Of a DNA stretch of 9,756 nucleotides, positions 1-9,756 are shown one piece after another; position 1 is the stretch's first letter; each line of letters begins with the position of its first letter. The stretch is from IMG/VR virus record IMGVR_UViG_3300029878_000054, positions 1-9,756 of that record. One strand, 5' to 3'. This DNA is from a virus. Its lineage: Duplodnaviria; Heunggongvirae; Uroviricota; Caudoviricetes. A model generated the notes under the pieces. The model saw only the letters and a program-made list of their open reading frames with translations. It made no database searches and was not told the origin of the DNA. The translations under genes were made by a program, and so were the position numbers.

Positions 1-160
1 ATAGTGCGTTCACCGAATACGTGCGCAACAACCGTCTTCCGGAGACTGTCATACGCGTAAAACAGCCAGCGCTGGCGCGATTTAGCCCCGACATAGCCCC
101 ACTGTTCGTCCATTTCCGCGCAGACGATGACGTCACTGCCCGGCTGTATGCGCGAGGTTA
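1..160 (-). mobile_element. insB: IS1 internal fragment (partial insB, running off the left edge; IS1 left end and insA absent)
   Basis: Minus-strand translation of 1-132 reads [48 protein letters not shown], which I recognise as the N-proximal part of IS1 InsB. The IS1-like DNA stops near 160, where Ala-rich repeat DNA begins, so the element is broken internally rather than at an inverted repeat. Confidence 0.8.
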
Positions 161-393
161 GCGTTTGTTTCGCTGCTCTTTGCTGCTGCCTCGCTATTTT
201 TCGCGTTGGTTTCTGATTTTTTGGCTGCTGTCGCGGAGTTTGCCGATGCAGTTTGTGAGTCTGCTGCCGCCTGTGCGCTGTTATCCGCATTCGTCTCAGA
301 CGTTTTTGCGGCCTTCGCGGAATTTCCTGCCGCCGTTGCCGAGGAAGCTGCACTAACCCTGCGTCTGTCAGCACAGTAAAACCCGGTGTGCAT
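133..393 (-). pseudogene. Chimeric remnant ORF: side-tail-fibre-like Ala/Ser/Thr/Asn-rich repeat fragment whose last codons and stop are supplied out of frame by IS1 DNA
   Basis: 86-aa ORF with SETNA-type repeats ([20 protein letters not shown] ... [21 protein letters not shown]) resembling the shaft repeats of lambdoid Stf-family tail fibres. The N-terminus ([13 protein letters not shown]) is implausible and the frame closes 4 codons upstream. The C-terminal NLAHTAGQ-stop lies inside the IS1 fragment. Confidence 0.4.
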
Positions 394-668
394 CGTTTTT
401 GATTATTCCCGCACACTCACGCAGAAGGAATTCCCCGTCGGGCTACGGTCATGGTTAATGCGGGAATACGGCGACGATACAGCGCAGCTAAAAGGGTAAT
501 AGACGGATAGACCGGTTTATTTCATTCCACAGGATTCTGAGTGTCCCCAACTTCCTCCAATAGTCTGAGCGTACACCTATATAGTTTTAATTTTCATCAA
601 TCCATTTAACTATCGTTTAATTGTTGTCACATAGGATTCTGCCGTTTTTAACAATGCAGGATAATAAG

Positions 669-962
669 ATGAAAAAAATGTTGTTTTCTGCCGCTCTGGC
701 AATGCTTATTACAGGATGTGCTCAACAGACGTTTACTGTTGGAAACAAACCGACAGCAGTAACACCAAAGGAAACCATCACCCATCACTTCTTCGTTTCG
801 GGAATTGGACAGGAGAAAACTGTCGATGCAGCCAAAATTTGTGGCGGCGCAGAAAATGTTGTTAAAACAGAAACCCAGCAAACATTCGTAAATGGATTGC
901 TCGGTTTTATTACTTTAGGCATTTATACTCCGCTGGAAGCGCGTGTGTATTGCTCACAATAA
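669..962 (+). CDS. borD: Bor-family outer-membrane lipoprotein (lambda Bor / serum-resistance lipoprotein homolog), 97 aa
   Basis: MKKMLFSAALAMLITGC... has a signal peptide with lipobox ITGC and matches lambda Bor almost along its length. AGGA lies 7 nt upstream of the ATG at 669. The ORF-track start at 621 is a TTG extension and is not used. Confidence 0.9.
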   Translation: MKKMLFSAALAMLITGCAQQTFTVGNKPTAVTPKETITHHFFVSGIGQEKTVDAAKICGGAENVVKTETQQTFVNGLLGFITLGIYTPLEARVYCSQ

Positions 963-972
963 TTGCATGAGT

Positions 973-990
973 TGCCCATCGATATGGGCA
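973..990. terminator. Hairpin between convergent bor and Rz (stem TGCCCAT / ATGGGCA, 4-nt loop); possible weak bidirectional terminator
   Basis: 7-bp perfect inverted repeat seen directly in the 31-bp gap between the bor stop (962) and the Rz/Rz1 stop (994). No U-tract on either side, hence low confidence. Confidence 0.3.
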
Positions 991-993
991 GCT

Positions 994-1455
994 CTATCTG
1001 CACTGCTCATTAATATACTTCTGGGTTCCTTCCAGTTGTTTTTGCATAGTGATCAGCCTCTCTCTGAGGGTGAAATAATCCCGTTCAGCGGTGTCTGCCA
1101 GTCGGGGGGAGGCTGCATTATCCACGCCGGAGGCGGTGGTGGCTTCACGCACTGACTGACAGACTGCTTTGATGTGCAACCGACGACGACCAGCGGCAAC
1201 ATCATCACGCAGAGCATCATTTTCAGCTTTCGCATCAGCTAACTCCTTCGTGTATTTTGCATCGAGCGCAGCAACATCACGCTGACGCATCTGCATGTCA
1301 GTAATTGCCGCGTTCGCCAGCTTCAGTTCTCTGGCATTTTTGTCGCGCTGGGCTTTGTAGGTAATGGCGTTATCACGGTAATGATTAACAGCCCATGACA
1401 GGCCGACGATGATGCAGATAACCAGAGCGGAGATAATCGCGGTTACTCTGTTCAT
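994..1455 (-). CDS. rzpD: Rz-type i-spanin (inner-membrane spanin subunit), 153 aa
   Basis: N-terminal TM helix ([18 protein letters not shown]) followed by a charged coiled-coil-like region; near-identical to DLP12 RzpD as I recall it. The ATG at 1455 overlaps the endolysin stop (ATGA arrangement). The ORF-track start at 1467 is GTG. Confidence 0.85.
1053..1235 (-). CDS. rzoD: Rz1-type o-spanin (outer-membrane lipoprotein), 60 aa, embedded in the +1 frame of Rz
   Basis: [20 protein letters not shown]... has a signal peptide with lipobox VVGC and a proline-rich mature part ([15 protein letters not shown]); it lies wholly inside Rz in another frame, the classic Rz/Rz1 arrangement. Confidence 0.8.
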
Positions 1456-1949
1456 TGCTGACCCCACAAACAGATTTCACGCTCAATCTCACGACGAGTC
1501 ATGAGACCTTTCCATTGCTTACCGCCAGCATATGTCCAGCGACGTAGCTGATCACATGCGCCTTTGATATCGCCCTGGTTTATTTTGCGAAGAAGCGTCG
1601 ATGTTCTGAAATTGCCAGCACCCACGTTGTAAACGAATGAGTAAAGAGCGCCGCGCATTGTTTCCGGTATATCGACTTTGATGTACGGGTTAATTTGTCT
1701 GGCGACCGTGGCAAGGTCTTTATTCAGGAGGGCTTTGCATTCTGCTTTGGTATACGTTTTACCGAGCATGATGTCTTTTCCTGTATGCCCGTGACATACA
1801 GTCCATACACCAACAATATCTTTGTATGGTATGTAGCTGACACCTTCCAGACCATCGTTACCACTTGGGCCAGTAATTAACACTGATGCTATAGCAATTG
1901 CTCCGCCACCAATAGCAGCAGCAACGGCTTTTCGTAATGATGGAGGCAT
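1452..1949 (-). CDS. rrrD: SAR endolysin (phage lysozyme, T4-lysozyme-like, phage 21 R type), 165 aa
   Basis: N-terminal signal-arrest-release segment ([20 protein letters not shown]) followed by a lysozyme core ([23 protein letters not shown]); the start ATG shares one nucleotide with the holin stop. Confidence 0.9.
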
Positions 1950-2164
1950 TATTCACCTCTCGCAGCCTTGCGCTTATCTTCTTTAATCTTGAAATAAAGG
2001 TTTGTCAGGTACGTCAGCAGGCCAAATACCAGGCTACCCAGCACACCTATTGCTGCCCACTGTGAGGGCGTGACTTTATCGAGCAGCTGTAAAAACCAGT
2101 AACCGGCACTACCTGCTGAGGTGCCATAGGCGACACCCGTTGTTAACTTATCCATGGATTTCAT
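1949..2164 (-). CDS. essD: Pinholin (phage 21 S-type class II holin) with dual start motif MKSMDK (antiholin/holin), 71 aa
   Basis: [71 protein letters not shown] has two TM segments and a charged C-tail. GAGGTGG lies 7-13 nt upstream of the ATG at 2164. The ORF-track start at 2209 is rejected. Confidence 0.85.
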
Positions 2165-2753
2165 AACCCCACCTCGCAGACAAAGCGGGTGTAAATTGAG
2201 GGAATACAACGTATCGCAAAAAAGCAGAAACGTAACAGACTCGGAGTCAGTGAATAACTCAGGTATTGAGTTATCAGCTAATATCGAGACTCAAAAAATG
2301 GAAAAACCAGCTCGACGGCGGGTTTAAGCTGTGTGACGAAGTAACCACTCTTAACAGCATAACCAATTTTTTACGTACGTAAACCACTGAATGATATTTA
2401 TGAGAATGCTACTGAGTGTTCAAAACACCACCACAAATACATAAGAAAACCTCAACAAATAACCAACAAATAATTTCCAGTGTTATTTTTAGCCGATTTA
2501 AATTGAACCTTCAAATTATAGAGCGCTTATAAATAACAGCCGTTAATATAAATTGGCTAATAGATTTATTTTTATTCAGCCAAGAGCTATGAATAGGATT
2601 CGATAGAAAAAAGTTCAGATAAAAATAGAGATCTACTTCACAAATCAAACGAGAAACCAAAACTTACATCTTGAAATAATCACATTGATTAGATGAATAT
2701 TTATCGCGCAGTGACATCATTTTTTAATAATAGTTCAAAAAAAAGGGCTCACG

Positions 2754-3851
2754 ATGAAAAAATTAACAGTGGCAATTTCTGCTGTAGCTGCATCAGTACT
2801 GATGGCGATGTCTGCTCAGGCAGCTGAAATTTATAATAAAGACAGTAACAAGCTGGATCTGTACGGGAAAGTTAATGCCAAGCACTACTTCTCCTCTAAT
2901 GATGCAGATGATGGTGATACTACTTATGCCCGTCTTGGCTTCAAAGGTGAAACCCAAATCAACGATCAACTGACTGGTTTCGGTCAGTGGGAATATGAAT
3001 TCAAAGGCAACCGCGCTGAATCTCAAGGTTCCTCCAAAGACAAAACCCGTCTTGCATTTGCAGGCCTGAAATTCGGTGACTACGGCTCAATCGATTACGG
3101 CCGTAACTACGGTGTAGCATACGACATCGGTGCGTGGACTGACGTTCTGCCAGAATTCGGTGGCGATACCTGGACCCAAACAGATGTGTTCATGACTGGT
3201 CGCACCACTGGTGTTGCAACCTATCGTAACAACGACTTCTTTGGTCTGGTTGATGGTCTGAACTTTGCTGCTCAGTACCAAGGCAAAAACGATCGTAGCG
3301 ATTTCGATAACTACACTGAAGGTAACGGTGATGGCTTCGGTTTCTCTGCTACCTATGAATACGAAGGATTCGGTATCGGTGCAACTTATGCGAAATCTGA
3401 TCGTACCGACACTCAAGTTAATGCAGGGAAAGTTCTTCCTGAAGTATTTGCTTCCGGTAAAAATGCAGAAGTTTGGGCCGCAGGTCTGAAATATGACGCT
3501 AACAACATTTACCTGGCCACTACCTATTCTGAAACCCAGAATATGACTGTATTTGCTGATCACTTCGTTGCTAATAAAGCCCAAAACTTCGAAGCTGTTG
3601 CACAATATCAGTTCGATTTCGGTCTGCGTCCGTCCGTTGCTTACCTGCAATCTAAAGGTAAAGATCTTGGAGTATGGGGCGATCAGGACTTAGTCAAATA
3701 TGTTGATGTAGGTGCAACCTATTACTTCAACAAAAATATGTCTACTTTCGTTGATTACAAAATCAACCTGCTTGACAAAAATGACTTCACTAAAGCACTC
3801 GGTGTAAGCACTGATGACATCGTTGCTGTAGGTCTGGTTTACCAGTTCTAA
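2754..3851 (+). CDS. nmpC: General-diffusion outer-membrane porin, NmpC/OmpD type (OmpC/OmpF/PhoE family), 365 aa, apparently intact
   Basis: Signal peptide ending AQA, then AEIYNKD; porin-family sequence throughout; C-terminal ...VGLVYQF with terminal Phe. High-expression-style codon usage. It sits between Q and the lysis cassette on the opposite strand, as nmpC does in DLP12. Confidence 0.93.
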
Positions 3852-3860
3852 TCTGATTAC

Positions 3861-3901
3861 GAAAAAGATATGTTGCGGGAGGCGTTGCCTCCCCAACATA
3901 T
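3861..3901 (-). terminator. Rho-independent terminator for minus-strand (late, Q-side) transcription; candidate tR'-like terminator
   Basis: On the minus strand this is ATATGTTGGGGAGGCAACGCCTCCCGCAACATAT followed by CTTTTTC: a ~15-bp stem with one bulge and a 3-nt loop, then a U-tract. It is read directly from the sequence. Confidence 0.5.
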
Positions 3902-3988
3902 AAGTGGCTCCCTCAAGCCACTTCCTTTAGAAGCACAACCTTGCTTCTAACTATATAAACCTTCTGTTATATATTACCCTTTATTTTT

Positions 3989-4016
3989 GGGGGCGTCTCA
4001 ACGCCCCATTTTTAAT
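3989..4016 (+). terminator. Rho-independent terminator for plus-strand transcription (likely the distal terminator of the porin gene)
   Basis: GGGGGCGT-ctca-ACGCCCC followed by ATTTTTAAT on the plus strand; hairpins at 3902-3928 (AAGTGGCT/AGCCACTT then CCTTT) and 3927-3950 (TTAGAAGCA/TGCTTCTAA) lie just upstream. Confidence 0.5.
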
Positions 4017-4040
4017 AATTTTTAGTAAACAATTGGCATA

Positions 4041-4424
4041 TTAATTAGAGTTATTAACAACGATATCCATCTCTAACCGGATATCTAATGCCATTAACAT
4101 CCCTTCAATTATGCCCTCAGCCTTCTGTAACCTTTTCCCGATATAACCATCAGAGCAGCAATGCTTACCTGCCAGTGACATGAATGTCATACCGACTACA
4201 TAATAATCTACTAATAAATCGTGCAAATCGCTGTTGTTCTTTTTCAGACGGGCCATGCACCCGCAAATGATCATCGCGTCATCGTCACAACATTGCGGGC
4301 GAGATTTTACTTTTGAAGGAATTAATCCCTTAAAACCGGCGGCAATGGACGACCAGGTCACATCTTCATGATTATTAGCCGCCCACGCTCCCCAACGCTC
4401 AAGAACCATCTGAATATCACGCAT
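4041..4424 (-). CDS. quuD: Late-gene antiterminator Q (DLP12 QuuD type), 127 aa
   Basis: [24 protein letters not shown]...[18 protein letters not shown]...HCCSDGY matches QuuD as I remember it, including the Cys-rich zinc-binding region. Start chosen at MRDIQ (4424) rather than the ORF-track start at 4439. Confidence 0.85.
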
Positions 4425-4509
4425 CAACTTACTCCACAAAAATCAGACCAGAACGCCAATCACAAGCAAAAATCAACAAAACAGTATTAGTTGATTGTTA
4501 TCTCTGACT

Positions 4510-4632
4510 TCATACTCCTGCTCCTGTCAGGGTTTTGGCGTAATTCTTCAGTATTCGGTAATCGGTCAAAACAGAACCGGGGAAACGATATAAGCGCAGA
4601 TGCCCCCAGCGGTGGCGAAGAAGTTCTGCCAT
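4510..4632 (-). CDS. Small ORF (40 aa) between rusA and Q, at the position of ylcG in DLP12
   Basis: Hand translation of the minus strand gives MAELLRHRWGHLRLYRFPGSVLTDYRILKNYAKTLTGAGV-stop, starting 14 nt after the rusA stop. It is below the ORF-track size cut-off. No strong SD; identity to YlcG not verified. Confidence 0.4.
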   Translation of the reverse strand: MAELLRHRWGHLRLYRFPGSVLTDYRILKNYAKTLTGAGV

Positions 4633-4646
4633 ATAAAACTCAAACA

Positions 4647-5009
4647 TCATTCATTCCCCATTTCGGTGATGGTCAGTTCCAGCCTCCCACCTTTGGTAAC
4701 GGGCATCTTCACAACGCGGTAATCAACGACCTGAGCATCATCCAGCCAGAAACCTGCTTTAGTGAGTGCGTCAAAAGCGGCTTTTTGCAGATTATCCAGG
4801 TCACGGCGACGGCGATCCGGCATGTGGCACTCAATGCGGATTTTCACAGGCATAGCCAGGCCGATATCCAGCATTGCGTTTTTAATGATTCGGGCGACGT
4901 TATCGCGGTATGCCTGCCCCTCTGCGCTGATGTGCGTGCGCCCGCGATTATGGCGGTAATAGCGATTATTGCTCGGAGGCCAGGGTAATGTGATGCTGTA
5001 GGTATTCAC
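4647..5009 (-). CDS. rusA: Crossover-junction endodeoxyribonuclease RusA (Holliday-junction resolvase), 120 aa
   Basis: [26 protein letters not shown]...[51 protein letters not shown] is essentially the K-12 RusA sequence as I recall it; the start overlaps the ybcO stop (ATGA). Confidence 0.95.
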
Positions 5010-5296
5010 GCCTTAATAACCCCCTCTTTCAGCCAGATAACCTGTGTTCTCGCCATACCTTCCAGCGCACATTCTTTTGCATATGCAGCATCGACAAAAT
5101 GTGTGCGGCGGTCGATTTCGTCGTGGCAGGCAGAACATGCAATGGTGGCAATCAGGTCTGGCGGTTTGATACCGGTACCGCACAATCCAGCCAGCCGGAT
5201 ATGTGCCAGTACAGACGTTTCAGGGTTGCCATTACATACGCCAGGGATTCTTACCTGGCATTCCCGACCACGCGCTGCTTTTCTCAAATCAGCCAT
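5006..5296 (-). CDS. ybcO: YbcO-family protein (DUF1364, Cys-rich putative nuclease of lambdoid nin regions), 96 aa
   Basis: [62 protein letters not shown]... with a strong SD (AGGAGG) before the ATG at 5296; the ORF-track extension to 5335 uses a TTG and is rejected. Confidence 0.85.
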
Positions 5297-5459
5297 GACT
5301 CCTCCTTGCTGCCAGTCGCAACCATTTTTTATCAACCAAGCTGGCGGTATATCCGAGCAGTGTTGGTATTTCGGAAGGCTTCAGCTCAGGTTTACGCTTA
5401 CGACGATTTGGTACTCTGTAAATGTGCCCGTTCATGACACGAATAAGCGGTGTAGCCAT
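5289..5459 (-). CDS. ninE: NinE-family small protein, 56 aa
   Basis: Hand translation gives [56 protein letters not shown]-stop, with the basic KRKP...WLR pattern of lambda NinE. The start shares one nucleotide with the ybcN stop and the end overlaps the ybcO start by 8 nt. Not in the ORF track because of its size. Confidence 0.6.
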   Translation of the reverse strand: MATPLIRVMNGHIYRVPNRRKRKPELKPSEIPTLLGYTASLVDKKWLRLAARRSHG

Positions 5460-5914
5460 TACGCCTCCTGCTTGTCGCGCAGCAGCTGGAACTCGCAGCT
5501 CTGCGGAATAGTCAGGTGGCAGCCAATATTCATCGCCCAGGCTTCAACCTTACACAGGAAGACATACATCTCTCCGGTATCAAGATCGGAGGTATGGCGT
5601 AACGACTGGATAGTAGTGATTTCGCCGGTTACGACATCAACCAAGTCCTTGGTTTCATAACCGAGGTATGTGTGTTTGAGTGCATCTTTTACCCATACTG
5701 CAGTAGCGAACGTTTTCCCCCTGCTGATGAGGTACTCGCTGATTTCGCTGTACCACATGTGGCTGAGTGCATTCTGGGAAAGACTGCGTCTCTCGCGCCA
5801 CGGTTTAAGCACCATGCGAAAGCATTTTCCGTCCTCCAGATAAGGCTGGATCTGCTGACCGATAGTGGTGAAGTTACCGCGATGTAATTTGATGCCGTCT
5901 TGTGGGAGGTTCAC
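5459..5914 (-). CDS. ybcN: NinB/Orf-family recombination protein (DLP12 YbcN-like), 151 aa, GTG start
   Basis: Contains the [12 protein letters not shown] motif characteristic of NinB-family proteins; GGAGGTG sits 4-10 nt upstream of the GTG at 5914-5912. Confidence 0.85.
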
Positions 5915-6012
5915 GCTTCACCTCCGCAGAGGTCAAACGTTGGATGCAAAGAATCGCAGGTGCATTTCTGCATCTGTGAAGGGAGAAGAGAGTTTAGATT
6001 GTATGTGCGCAT
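5911..6012 (-). CDS. Small ORF (33 aa) upstream of and overlapping the ybcN start, at the position of ylcH in DLP12
   Basis: Minus-strand hand translation gives [33 protein letters not shown]-stop; its TGA overlaps the ybcN GTG (GTGA). Length equals K-12 ylcH (33 aa) as I recall, but the sequence identity is not verified. Confidence 0.35.
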
Positions 6013-6301
6013 AAACGTCCCCGTTTAGCGCAGAAGTCACCGGAGGTGTTCAGGCTCCGATGCGATAATTATGACGATCTGATTTTGGAAAATCAAATTT
6101 AAGTAACCGCCAACCTATAATTTTCAATCAAGATTTCATTTATTAGCTCACTCATATAAAAATACATTACAACGTTTTTATCTCTTAATTTATGAAGGCA
6201 ACCTCGAAAAACAAATCACCCAAACACTTTAAAACAATTAAACCCGTTTAAAATTACAATTACATTTAGAAAGCAAACTTTCAAAAGATGTGATGATACA
6301 A

Positions 6302-6330
6302 TTGCATAAAACAAATACTTGGGGTAAAAT
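6302..6330 (+). promoter_or_regulatory. Candidate sigma70 promoter for the AT-rich cargo operon (TTGCAT-N17-TAAAAT)
   Basis: -35-like TTGCAT at 6302-6307 and -10-like TAAAAT at 6325-6330 with 17-nt spacing, about 100 nt upstream of the first ATG of the island. AT-rich DNA generates such matches easily, hence low confidence. Confidence 0.3.
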
Positions 6331-6436
6331 ATAAAAATAACACTCCCAGCTTAACGCTAGGTGGCGGTAGCGTGTATTTTTCAAATACGCCTATCACCCC
6401 ATTATGTTTTTTCATATTTAAGAGATTGGTTATATA

Positions 6437-6811
6437 ATGGAACTAATATACACTTATATCCACAATTATAAAGGTTTAAATAAGCTGTCCCTCCCCACCT
6501 CAAGTAAATTTACCTTTAGCCATAAAGGTAACGTCCTTACAATTGCTAAGAAAGATTTAAGTCGTGACTATTATAGCAATATTCCCTGTACATTAATTTT
6601 AGGGAAAAATGGTGTTGGAAAGTCATCAATTTTAGATTTCATTAGTAGCTTTATTTACGATTTTGAAGGTAGCGGTTATAGCATCTGGAATGAAAATGAT
6701 AAACTTATAATTATCACAAGCAATTGCAAACCTCCTGTAATATTATCCAAAATGCAAACGGAACTGATTGATAATAATGAACATTTTTTAGAAGAAACAA
6801 AATCAATCTAA
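6437..6811 (+). CDS. N-terminal portion of an ABC/AAA15-type ATPase (Walker A only); probably the 5' half of a gene split by a frameshift
   Basis: P-loop LILGKNGVGKSSILD at residues ~53-67; no Walker B, signature or H-loop motif in this ORF. The frame ends at 6811, 31 nt after the downstream frame opens. Confidence 0.7.
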   Translation: MELIYTYIHNYKGLNKLSLPTSSKFTFSHKGNVLTIAKKDLSRDYYSNIPCTLILGKNGVGKSSILDFISSFIYDFEGSGYSIWNENDKLIIITSNCKPPVILSKMQTELIDNNEHFLEETKSI

Positions 6812-6843
6812 TAAAGATAAATAACACAATCGACCTCAAAAGT

Positions 6844-8223
6844 ATGTTAGTTGGACAAAAAAAGAAAAAAAACGATTCGATTTCTAAAGATTTATCACTG
6901 TCATATTTTTTGCAAGGCAGTAAAACACGCAATAAGAAATTACTCAAGCAATTAATTTCATTTTCAGACCACAGTTCATGGGCTAAAGACAATTTATCAA
7001 GACTTAATACTAAATTTCAATTTGAAATAGAAAACTCACCAGTATATAAAATAAATTCTATTATAAAAAACAATGATATTGGTGACAAAGGACTTTTTGG
7101 AGCTATTGAATACTTTTTTGATACGTTGAATGATAGAATTAAAAACAATAAACTCCCTAGATATATTGAACGTGATTTAGATTCTTTAGGTATTTCACTT
7201 GTGGATATACTCAATCATGGGATAGATTACGATGAAGATTTTATTATTAGCATTATTTTTAACAAAGAAAGATCATTAAATTTCCTCGCAACCTTTTCAT
7301 ATCACAAAATAATTTACTTGATGCTTTTGCCTGCAATAACATGGCATTTACTCAAGACATCAAAAATCCCTAAAGACATATGTGAGACTGTTTATTTATT
7401 TTGCTTGTGTCGCGCGTATCTTGAAGAAAAAGATCCAGCAAAAACTATATTAGAGACTTTAGATGAATTTAACGTTAATGTTAAATTTCAGTCAAAAATA
7501 GAAATGTTATCTGAACATATCTCCGACATTATAGGTAATATAGCTGATATATTAGAAAACACAGCAAGAGACCCAGTTGATAGTTTATCTTTCACAGTTG
7601 AAGAACCAAAGCAGATTATGGAGTTAATAAGATTAGTTGATAGGTTACCAAATGGCGTATCATCGCGATTTAAGTATGGTTGGGATTCACTTAGTTCAGG
7701 AGAGTTTGCAAAATTAAACCTTTTCAATCAACTTTATGATTCTATAGAACATAGCAACAGCAAAAATATTATAATATTATTAGATGAGTGTGATTTATAT
7801 CTACACCCTGAATGGCAACGAGTTATTTTTTCAGAAATTATAGATTTAACATTAAGATATAAACAAAGTAAAAATATTCAATTAGTATTTACAACTCACT
7901 CCCCTATACTCGCAAGTGATTTTTTGCCATCAGATATAATATATCTTGAAAGAGATCATAATCAAGGAACCTATACTAAGAAAGTAGAGTTTGGTTTCGG
8001 AGCAACCATATCAGAATTATATATAAATGGTTTTTTTATTGATGCTACAATAGGACAGCACGCACATAATTATCTAAACTCAATAATAAAAAACTCAGAT
8101 GACGGTAATTTAAATAAACATCAAAAAACCATACTATCACAAATTAAAAATAAACTTCTCATAAATCTTATTGATCTGAAGTTAAACAAAAACAATGATA
8201 AAACAGATTCTTTTGAGAAATGA
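6844..8223 (+). CDS. C-terminal portion of the same ABC/AAA15-type ATPase (signature, Walker B and H-loop motifs); a fused model 6437..8223 gives ~595 aa if one T is added to the T6 run at 6784-6789
   Basis: LSSGE signature-like motif, Walker B IIILLDECDLYLHP and H-loop VFTTHSP; no Walker A. The frame is open upstream to 6781 with no ATG before 6844. Confidence 0.7.
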   Translation: MLVGQKKKKNDSISKDLSLSYFLQGSKTRNKKLLKQLISFSDHSSWAKDNLSRLNTKFQFEIENSPVYKINSIIKNNDIGDKGLFGAIEYFFDTLNDRIKNNKLPRYIERDLDSLGISLVDILNHGIDYDEDFIISIIFNKERSLNFLATFSYHKIIYLMLLPAITWHLLKTSKIPKDICETVYLFCLCRAYLEEKDPAKTILETLDEFNVNVKFQSKIEMLSEHISDIIGNIADILENTARDPVDSLSFTVEEPKQIMELIRLVDRLPNGVSSRFKYGWDSLSSGEFAKLNLFNQLYDSIEHSNSKNIIILLDECDLYLHPEWQRVIFSEIIDLTLRYKQSKNIQLVFTTHSPILASDFLPSDIIYLERDHNQGTYTKKVEFGFGATISELYINGFFIDATIGQHAHNYLNSIIKNSDDGNLNKHQKTILSQIKNKLLINLIDLKLNKNNDKTDSFEK

Positions 8224-8741
8224 GTAAAAAAATGATAAAAATAAACAAAGACTTCAATGTTGATGTAAAAATATCCTTTTCTAAAATAGTAAGCAAAGTT
8301 AATAAACGCGTGAAGCAGAGGAAGTTACTGAACATTACTCCCGATGAAGTAGAGTTTCTAAATACAATCAACAAAAAAACTATCAGAAAATTAGTTTTTT
8401 CAAAACCCAAACGATTAAAAAATATAATCATCAAAATATACAACAAACACCCAATTGTGTGTGAGTACTATTCTCCTGATTATTTTTTAAGGCACTTAAA
8501 TTTACAACCATTAACAAACCTACAATTACCTTTAAAAACAAAAGAAAACAAAAAAATAGTTTATAATGAACTAGCACATGCCATCAAAATAATCACATCT
8601 TTCTCTCAAACTACACAAAGCCTAATACTTGAGGATATATTAAATACACATTTCTCACCACAAAAATTATCTAGTTTAAGAGATAAGATTCTTAATCTTA
8701 TAAGTATCAAGAATGGTGGTCCTAAAGGAAAATACCATTAA
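8220..8741 (+). CDS. Hypothetical lysine-rich basic protein, 173 aa, unknown function
   Basis: ORF whose ATG overlaps the stop of the ATPase ORF (ATGA); no recognisable catalytic motif. An alternative start at 8232 (MIKINK) is possible. Same extreme AT-richness as its neighbours. Confidence 0.5.
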   Translation: MSKKMIKINKDFNVDVKISFSKIVSKVNKRVKQRKLLNITPDEVEFLNTINKKTIRKLVFSKPKRLKNIIIKIYNKHPIVCEYYSPDYFLRHLNLQPLTNLQLPLKTKENKKIVYNELAHAIKIITSFSQTTQSLILEDILNTHFSPQKLSSLRDKILNLISIKNGGPKGKYH

Positions 8742-9423
8742 GTTATTTCCATCATGGGTTAAAAATATTTCTGAAATATTTAAATACTCACTTATTGATA
8801 GAGAAACAGCGTATCAATTGAACAGTTTTTTAGACATTAGCATATGCCCATATTGCAACAGTGAAGAAATTGAACAAGTAGAAGACCATACAGGTACTAG
8901 CTACAGGCCAGCATTTGATCATTTCATACCTAAGTACAAATATCCGTTGATCTCCTTTAGTTTATTTAACTTAATTCCTAGCTGCACTAAATGCAATAGT
9001 ACTTATAAAAAATCACTCGATCCGATCATGAGCCCATTTTCAAATCCTTTTCTTGAAGGTGTAAATGACACTCAGCTTTTTGATTTTAATTATGACATTG
9101 ATTATATATATAGAGATGGCCAAATTGATGATGATCACATTCAAATTATACTAAAAAAACAAAAAAACAACATCGATGAAAACATGGCTAAACTTAGCAT
9201 AGAGAATAGATATAATTCACGCATTAGAAAGAAAGCAGTTAGATTAATTGCAAAGAGAGCATTTGATCTAAAAGCTTATGAAGAAAATTTCATTATAGAA
9301 CCAACTCTTTTCGCTACTTTCGGTTACGAGACTAACATTGAGCCGCTAAAGCATATGCATAAAAAACTTACTCAAGATGCAATATTAGTATTCTGCAACA
9401 AACAAGTACCGTTAATTGAATAA
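8713..9423 (+). CDS. HNH (His-Me finger) endonuclease-domain protein, 236 aa
   Basis: CPYC ... (22 aa) ... DHFIP ... NLIPS ... CTKCN, i.e. the CxxC / DH / N / CxxC arrangement typical of HNH nucleases, in the N-terminal half. The start overlaps the preceding ORF by 29 nt. Confidence 0.7.
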   Translation: MVVLKENTIKLFPSWVKNISEIFKYSLIDRETAYQLNSFLDISICPYCNSEEIEQVEDHTGTSYRPAFDHFIPKYKYPLISFSLFNLIPSCTKCNSTYKKSLDPIMSPFSNPFLEGVNDTQLFDFNYDIDYIYRDGQIDDDHIQIILKKQKNNIDENMAKLSIENRYNSRIRKKAVRLIAKRAFDLKAYEENFIIEPTLFATFGYETNIEPLKHMHKKLTQDAILVFCNKQVPLIE

Positions 9424-9680
9424 GTAAAATGAAAGGATATCGAGCTATATAATGTAGTATGTCGAAAAATCAAACAGAAAAAAATCGAATAGTTACACTG
9501 TGCTCGGTGCTGTCTTCATGCTCCGTTCCTCTCGTAGGCTAGTAAAATTCGCGTCATCACCGGGCTTGGGGGCCATCATCGAAAATCTGATTGGTGCTTT
9601 TGTGCCAAGAGATTTCCTCTTCGGTTACCAATCGGTAGTGAATCGTTCGCTAGATATTGCTGACATCGACCAGATCGCCC

Positions 9681-9756
9681 TGATCTTACCCAGCAATAGT
9701 GGACACGCGGCTAAGTGAGTAAACTCTCAGTCAGAGGTGACTCACATGACAAAAAC
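9681..9756 (+). mobile_element. Left end of an IS3-type insertion sequence (terminal inverted repeat starting TGATCTTACCCAGCAATAGTGGACACGCGG), continuing off the right edge
   Basis: The sequence from 9681 matches what I recall as the IS3 left end, including the GAGGTGA SD and the ATG at 9736 that begins orfA (MTK...). Confidence 0.75.
9736..9756 (+). CDS. insE: IS3 OrfA (transposase N-terminal subunit), first 7 codons only (partial at window edge)
   Basis: ATG ACA AAA AC... preceded by GAGGTGA 8 nt upstream, consistent with the IS3 orfA start MTKTVS... Confidence 0.6.

Follow-up and report, generated by a model that had tools for sequence, protein, structure and literature searches.

An IS3 end joined to a ren remnant beside the cargo slot in a DLP12-like lambdoid prophage

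The window analysed here, a stretch of 9,756 nucleotides from a Caudoviricetes record of IMG/VR (IMGVR_UViG_3300029878_000054, positions 1 to 9,756), broke off within an insertion sequence that was preceded by a short segment of normal G+C content and by a low-G+C cargo island. The locus raised the question of what the short segment was, how the insertion sequence came to be joined to it, and whether the island was framed by IS elements. The comparisons made it very likely that a DLP12-like lambdoid prophage received IS3 by transposition into its already decayed ren gene, where a moron/defence cargo slot has its right edge.

The IS3 end and its junction

The last 76 nucleotides of the window (9681-9756, plus strand; beginning TGATCTTACCCAGCAATAGTGGACACGCGGCTAAGTGAG) had been predicted to be an IS3-type end. 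This was borne out by identity to nucleotides 1-76 of K-12 IS3C at all 76 positions and by matches to annotated IS3 copies, the window end falling within the element. By BLAST, the 76-nt end was matched (E=3e-31) in 4281 of 5426 complete E. coli genomes at a median of 3 places per genome, and full-length matches, many of them at 100%, lay under features named 'IS3-like element IS3 family transposase'. On the plus strand, 9681-9719 form the 39-nt left terminal inverted repeat (IRL). It started with 5'-TG and was identical to the IRL of K-12 IS3C; of its 39 positions, 28 agreed with the K-12 IRR read as reverse complement.

The start of orfA (insE) had been placed at 9736, where the bases read GGT; the true ATG was found 10 nt away at 9746-9748, corresponding to IS3 nucleotide 66 as in K-12 insE3 (9681+65). 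In IS3, orfA is followed by orfB, and a -1 frameshift joins the two into the OrfAB DDE transposase. Only 11 nt of orfA (9746-9756, plus strand, M-T-K) were contained in the window, and a gene was called at the same position in contig L007. Contigs L007 and L011 reached IS3 nucleotides 125 and 117, respectively, and both matched IS3 over the first 76 nt. Beyond nucleotide 76, both contigs were compared by eye with the IS3 of WL164, and no divergence was seen in L007 up to nucleotide 125.

The junction was spanned identically by nine independent ENA/Logan assemblies, the contigs of which ended 29-125 nt into IS3. The loci were obtained by the look-up of a 236-aa protein of the window, which gave matches in 55 blocks of ENA/Logan; nine of the ten returned loci crossed the junction. 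With nine independent assemblies crossing it, the junction is real rather than an artefact of assembly, and it belongs to a sampled lineage. It was found in none of the complete E. coli genomes (0 of 20,395 records covered at least 80% of 9458-9756), and the junction pattern had no match among the GTDB species representatives or in IMG/VR. Short-read contigs end at repeats such as IS3. When extension past the window end was attempted, every junction contig stopped within IS3, and this element will interrupt every short-read contig of the lineage.

The ren pseudogene before IS3

The segment preceding IS3 had been described as returning to about 50% G+C and as a probable fragment of the gene that IS3 had hit. 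Both statements held. A G+C content of 49.7% was measured over 9516-9680, compared with 34% (33.7%) in 9424-9515 and 29% in the cargo at 6100-9423, and the interrupted gene was identified as ren, whose 3' half (approximately codons 43-97) occupied 9516-9680 on the minus strand. The whole G+C-normal segment is accounted for by this half of ren. Cargo gene B and ren converge, with their stops at 9423 and 9516, and the A+T-rich spacer 9424-9515 separates the two. A promoter and terminator scan of 9300-9756 found nothing, and an Rfam scan of the entire window gave no match.

The minus-strand reading of 9516-9680 was GDLVDVSNI, a stop, RTIHYRLVTEEEISWHKSTNQIFDDGPQAR and a second stop. Over 49 aa, the translated remnant shared 39% identity with lambda Ren, and the DNA was 77% identical to a gene present in six Klebsiella phages, annotated in four of the six as 'Ren protein' or 'exclusion protein ren'. 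When the frameshift and the TAG codon were mended, the repaired reading and residues 44-97 of the Klebsiella phage Ren gave a gap-free alignment up to the stop, with 54% identity (E=8e-22 in a single pairwise comparison). The PHROG family 142, 'Ren-like exclusion protein', was matched by the 54-aa remnant reading with E=2.3e-6 and by a 70-aa version from an IS3-free relative with E=2.6e-9. Neither the remnant nor lambda Ren itself had a significant match in Pfam, which holds no Ren model, so that the ren identity rests on PHROGs and pairwise comparisons.

The location agreed with this assignment. In lambda, ren directly follows the replication gene P, and the remnant had the same placement in IS3-free relatives, where the ren homology ended approximately 55 nt from the P stop. 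The frame itself was broken in several ways. A nonsense codon (TGG to TAG) at 9650-9652 on the minus strand replaced the codon of Trp53, which is conserved in the lambda, K-12 and Klebsiella Ren proteins. The DNA alignment to the Klebsiella phage genes placed a 1-nt deletion at approximately 9575/9576, resulting in a premature stop at 9557-9559, the original stop being at 9516-9518. In addition, the gene was truncated by IS3, and in the IS3-free relatives it had no start codon and a degraded 5' end, with about 55 nt from the P stop to the conserved INQ motif as against 32 codons in lambda. Compared with lambda Ren and the members of PHROG 142, the window thus holds a remnant cut by IS3 and not a functional member.

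The original prediction had also noted that the only long frame of the segment, starting with GTG, reads across the IS boundary. This 72-aa frame (9500-9718, plus strand) was indeed present and crossed the boundary, its end lying inside IS3. It is extremely improbable that the frame is a real small gene truncated or fused by IS3, even though the PGAP annotation of TW10828 and AR_0077 has a 'hypothetical protein' in the frame. The frame had no PHROG family match, no promoter-like site was found near it in the scan of 9300-9756, and it ran exactly antisense to sequence that was demonstrably ren-derived on the other strand. It is a chance frame and an antisense artefact of ren, not a gene. The PGAP product is a 40-aa protein, WP_255402470.1, called in L001 (17236-17358) and L015 (7145-7267), which corresponds to the window from 9602 onward on the plus strand; it is probably a spurious call on the antisense strand of the ren pseudogene.

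Empty sites and independent IS3 insertions

The unoccupied site was found in 12 IS3-free loci, namely six complete E. coli genomes, one JGI metagenome contig and five IMG/VR contigs. There, GATCGCCC was followed directly by TGCTTTG (also read as GATCGCCC followed by TGCTTTGTCAG). The six complete genomes matched 9458-9682 at 99-100% and then diverged exactly at the IS3 end. In TW10828, GATCGCCC was continued by TGCTTTGTCAGAATG, and about 35 nt more of ren homology led to the P stop, beyond which came O, the immunity region and genes of recombination; AR_0077 was arranged alike, but in another prophage backbone. All 12 copies lay next to the same cargo as in the window. In 11 of them, 9458-9680 was identical to the window, the TAG codon and the frameshift included, and the AR_0077 copy was 99.1% identical. 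Seven loci were compared directly over this interval, and four further complete genomes were 100% identical by BLAST.

Because eleven IS3-free copies carry the TAG codon and the frameshift, and the 5' end is degraded in these relatives, ren must have been dead before IS3 arrived. The insertion destroyed nothing, ren being non-functional already. Elements of the IS3 family normally duplicate 3 bp of their target, and from the empty site the predicted target is CCC at 9678-9680, which we infer to have been duplicated. We proposed that IS3 landed in the ren remnant by a simple insertion with duplication of CCC. In phage terms, the site would lie in the rightward early operon, with the replication gene P on one side and the nin/Q region on the other. 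What is visible of IS3, its IRL and 11 nt of orfA, would direct IS3 transcription away from the cargo. For such a simple insertion, the predicted right junction is GGGTAGGATCA, CCC and TGCTTTGTCAGAATG.

The right side of the element bears on another explanation, in which the junction marks the end of a deletion of adjacent DNA caused by IS3, or of a recombination between two copies of the element. Lost in that case would be the 5' part of ren, P, O and the immunity region, and int/argU-proximal or unrelated DNA would lie beyond IS3. This is a realistic possibility, somewhat short of an even chance. Loss of the early region and an IS3 near int are common among DLP12-type remnants, as in K-12, WL164 and AW1.7, and the lineage of the window is placed by contig L005 at the appY side of the DLP12 locus. 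In WL164, a truncated IS3 lies next to ren in the same orientation as in the window and is followed directly by intD, which shows that IS3 junctions at this locus do become rearranged; in AW1.7, IS3 stands beside a truncated integrase. No contig joining the IS3 IRR to CCCTGCTTTG was found in the JGI metagenomes, GTDB or IMG/VR, and the right-flank pattern returned empty sites only, but the collections searched also lacked the left junction, which makes this absence uninformative. The closest relatives, with 5 differences in 3.7 kb, retain P, O and the immunity region, which speaks against a deletion.

The K-12 map given in the original prediction, with IS3 upstream of ybcN and emrE-ybcK-ybcL-ybcM-ylcH between them, agreed with the annotation, in which ylcJ is also present. 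The order in the K-12 DLP12 prophage is IS3C followed by emrE-ylcJ-ybcK-ybcL-ybcM-ylcH-ybcN, and renD is split by IS3C. The K-12 insertion (insE3/insF3, b0540-b0542) shares with that of the window the IS element (76 visible nucleotides identical), the target gene, the prophage family and the placement at the border of the cargo slot, upstream of ylcH-ybcN. However, IS3C was inserted at ren nucleotide 93 in the orientation of ren itself, with both ren fragments retained, whereas the IS3 of the window lies at approximately nucleotide 127 of a divergent, Klebsiella-phage-like ren allele and in the orientation opposite to ren. The cargo differs as well, being emrE-ybcK-ybcL-ybcM in K-12 and an ATPase with an HNH-like partner in the window. 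The K-12 junction was found in 305 complete genomes and the window junction in none. A copy of K-12 IS3C was rejected as the source of the window junction on position, orientation and ren allele.

A third junction was present in WL164 at approximately nucleotide 159, again opposite to ren, where the truncated IS3 was fused upstream of intD; this junction was unique to WL164. In AW1.7, IS3 was located nearby, between an outer-membrane protein gene and the truncated integrase. The loci with IS3 in or next to ren are 3685-5248 in K-12 (L003), 15500-16180 in WL164 (L002) and 16317-18987 in AW1.7 (L023). The insertions of K-12, the window, WL164 and AW1.7 are independent events and not a single inherited IS3.

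Three IS3/ren junctions were therefore counted within about 70 bp (nucleotides 93, ~127 and ~159), representing two orientations and two alleles of ren, with a fourth IS3 nearby in AW1.7. That the ren region of DLP12-like prophages is a preferred landing or retention site of IS3 is nevertheless rather unlikely. The recurrence may reflect a hotspot or a survivorship effect. It could arise from a target preference of IS3, or it could follow from selection for separating the replication/immunity region from the Q-lysis region, thereby 'grounding' the prophage.

The cargo slot and the IS elements of the window

The left flank of the cargo slot is formed by conserved prophage DNA with ylcH and ybcN. 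A ylcH-like small ORF was located at 5911-6012 on the minus strand, upstream of ybcN (5459-5914), in accordance with the annotation of TW10828 and K-12, and the similarity of most genomes to the window ended at 6097-6101, just past this ORF. The suggestion that the slot is an exchangeable cargo site was supported, as at least four unrelated gene sets were found between P/ren and ylcH-ybcN across E. coli genomes. These were emrE-ylcJ-ybcK-ybcL-ybcM in K-12 (L003, 5316-9252), emrE-ybcK-P22AR domain-hypothetical in WL164 and AW1.7, a NADAR and phosphoribosyltransferase-like pair in STN0717-20 (L024, 12758-14869), and the ATPase and HNH-like pair in the window (~6100 to 9515), TW10828 and AR_0077. 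Nothing specific on a previously described ren-nin defence hotspot or on PDC-M62 emerged from literature searches.

Cargo gene A (6437-8223, plus strand) encodes an AAA_15/AAA_21 ATPase related to PtuA of Septu; its intact 595-aa relative matched PDC-M62A of PADLOC with E=4e-44 and AAA_21/AAA_15 of Pfam. Cargo gene B (8232-9423, plus strand) encodes a distantly PtuB-like HNH partner, which matched PDC-M62B of PADLOC with E=1.5e-33 and the Pfam HNH model below threshold (E=0.0019). The pair matched Septu (PtuA ATPase and PtuB HNH) more weakly than PDC-M62A/B, PDC-M62 being a candidate system only. The domain matches were present in the window, but neither gene was intact. A frameshift from T7 to T6 at approximately 6783 divided gene A into ORFs of 124 and 459 aa, and a 2-nt deletion (TTT to T) at approximately 8722 split gene B. 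These were two of the five differences from TW10828, in which, as in AR_0077 and in the copies from IMG/VR and JGI, both genes were intact. Both frameshifts were common to all ten recovered assemblies of the window lineage, and in the IS3-free copies the TTT of gene B was intact wherever readable and the T7 was intact in all four matched by the gene A probe; for this reason, the cargo is decaying in the same lineage that acquired IS3. The insertion of IS3 is one more step of erosion beside the frameshifted Septu-like pair.

The poly-A tract between the gene A stop and the gene B start (window 8225) was A7 in the window and A8 in TW10828, and its length (A7 or A8) varied among the IS3-free copies too. 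This length may affect the spacing or the translational coupling of genes A and B. In AR_0077 (L015, 1-7300), the cargo, the ren remnant and P were combined with a different Q (230 aa) and lysis cassette. The cargo/ren/P module thus moves between lambdoid backbones by mosaic recombination.

The claim that the cargo island is bracketed by IS elements was not supported. Apart from IS3, the window had a single piece of IS sequence, an internal fragment of IS1 (1-162, minus strand) recognized by a Pfam DDE_Tnp_IS1 gene call in L005 and by BLAST to the IS1B transposase. It ran from approximately IS1 nucleotide 330 onward, had no terminal repeat and was fused to a fragment of an alanine/serine-rich tail-fibre gene (163 to ~420); this IS1/tail-fibre junction was absent from the complete E. 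coli genomes. The fragment lay about 6 kb from the island (~6100-9515). With IS sequences near both window ends, the IS1 fragment and the IS3 end at 9681, the low-G+C island might be taken for a composite-transposon-like unit brought in or mobilised by the flanking elements, which is hardly credible. A composite transposon would show two like IS elements with their ends, and cargo that is absent where the IS is absent. Here, IS1 and IS3 belong to different families, the IS1 piece is internal and without an end, and about 6 kb with bor/iss and the conserved lysis, porin, Q and nin genes separate it from the island. The same island with identical flanks occurs in the 12 IS3-free loci, including the different backbone of AR_0077. 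The composite transposon was rejected on the unlike IS families, the end-less IS1 and the IS3-free islands. Because these 12 loci carry the same island beside the same ren allele (99.1% in AR_0077), IS3 is a late, secondary insertion that stands outside the structure or the mobility of the island. The IS elements of the window are scars of prophage decay, neither a boundary nor a vehicle of the island.

An IS3 in the ren gene of a DLP12-like prophage is an ordinary and already known kind of event, a part of ordinary prophage decay. As another IS3 insertion in a cryptic lambdoid prophage, and in the same gene as in K-12, it matters little. Mildly unusual is only that independent IS3 junctions recur in and around ren. 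For annotation, the unannotated G+C-normal stretch is now explained as a ren pseudogene, and neither the 72-aa ORF nor the 40-aa PGAP 'hypothetical protein' of the relatives should be called a gene. The context is mildly useful: the interval from P/ren to ylcH-ybcN is a swappable moron/defence slot, in which this lineage is losing a Septu-like candidate system by frameshifts alongside the IS3 insertion.
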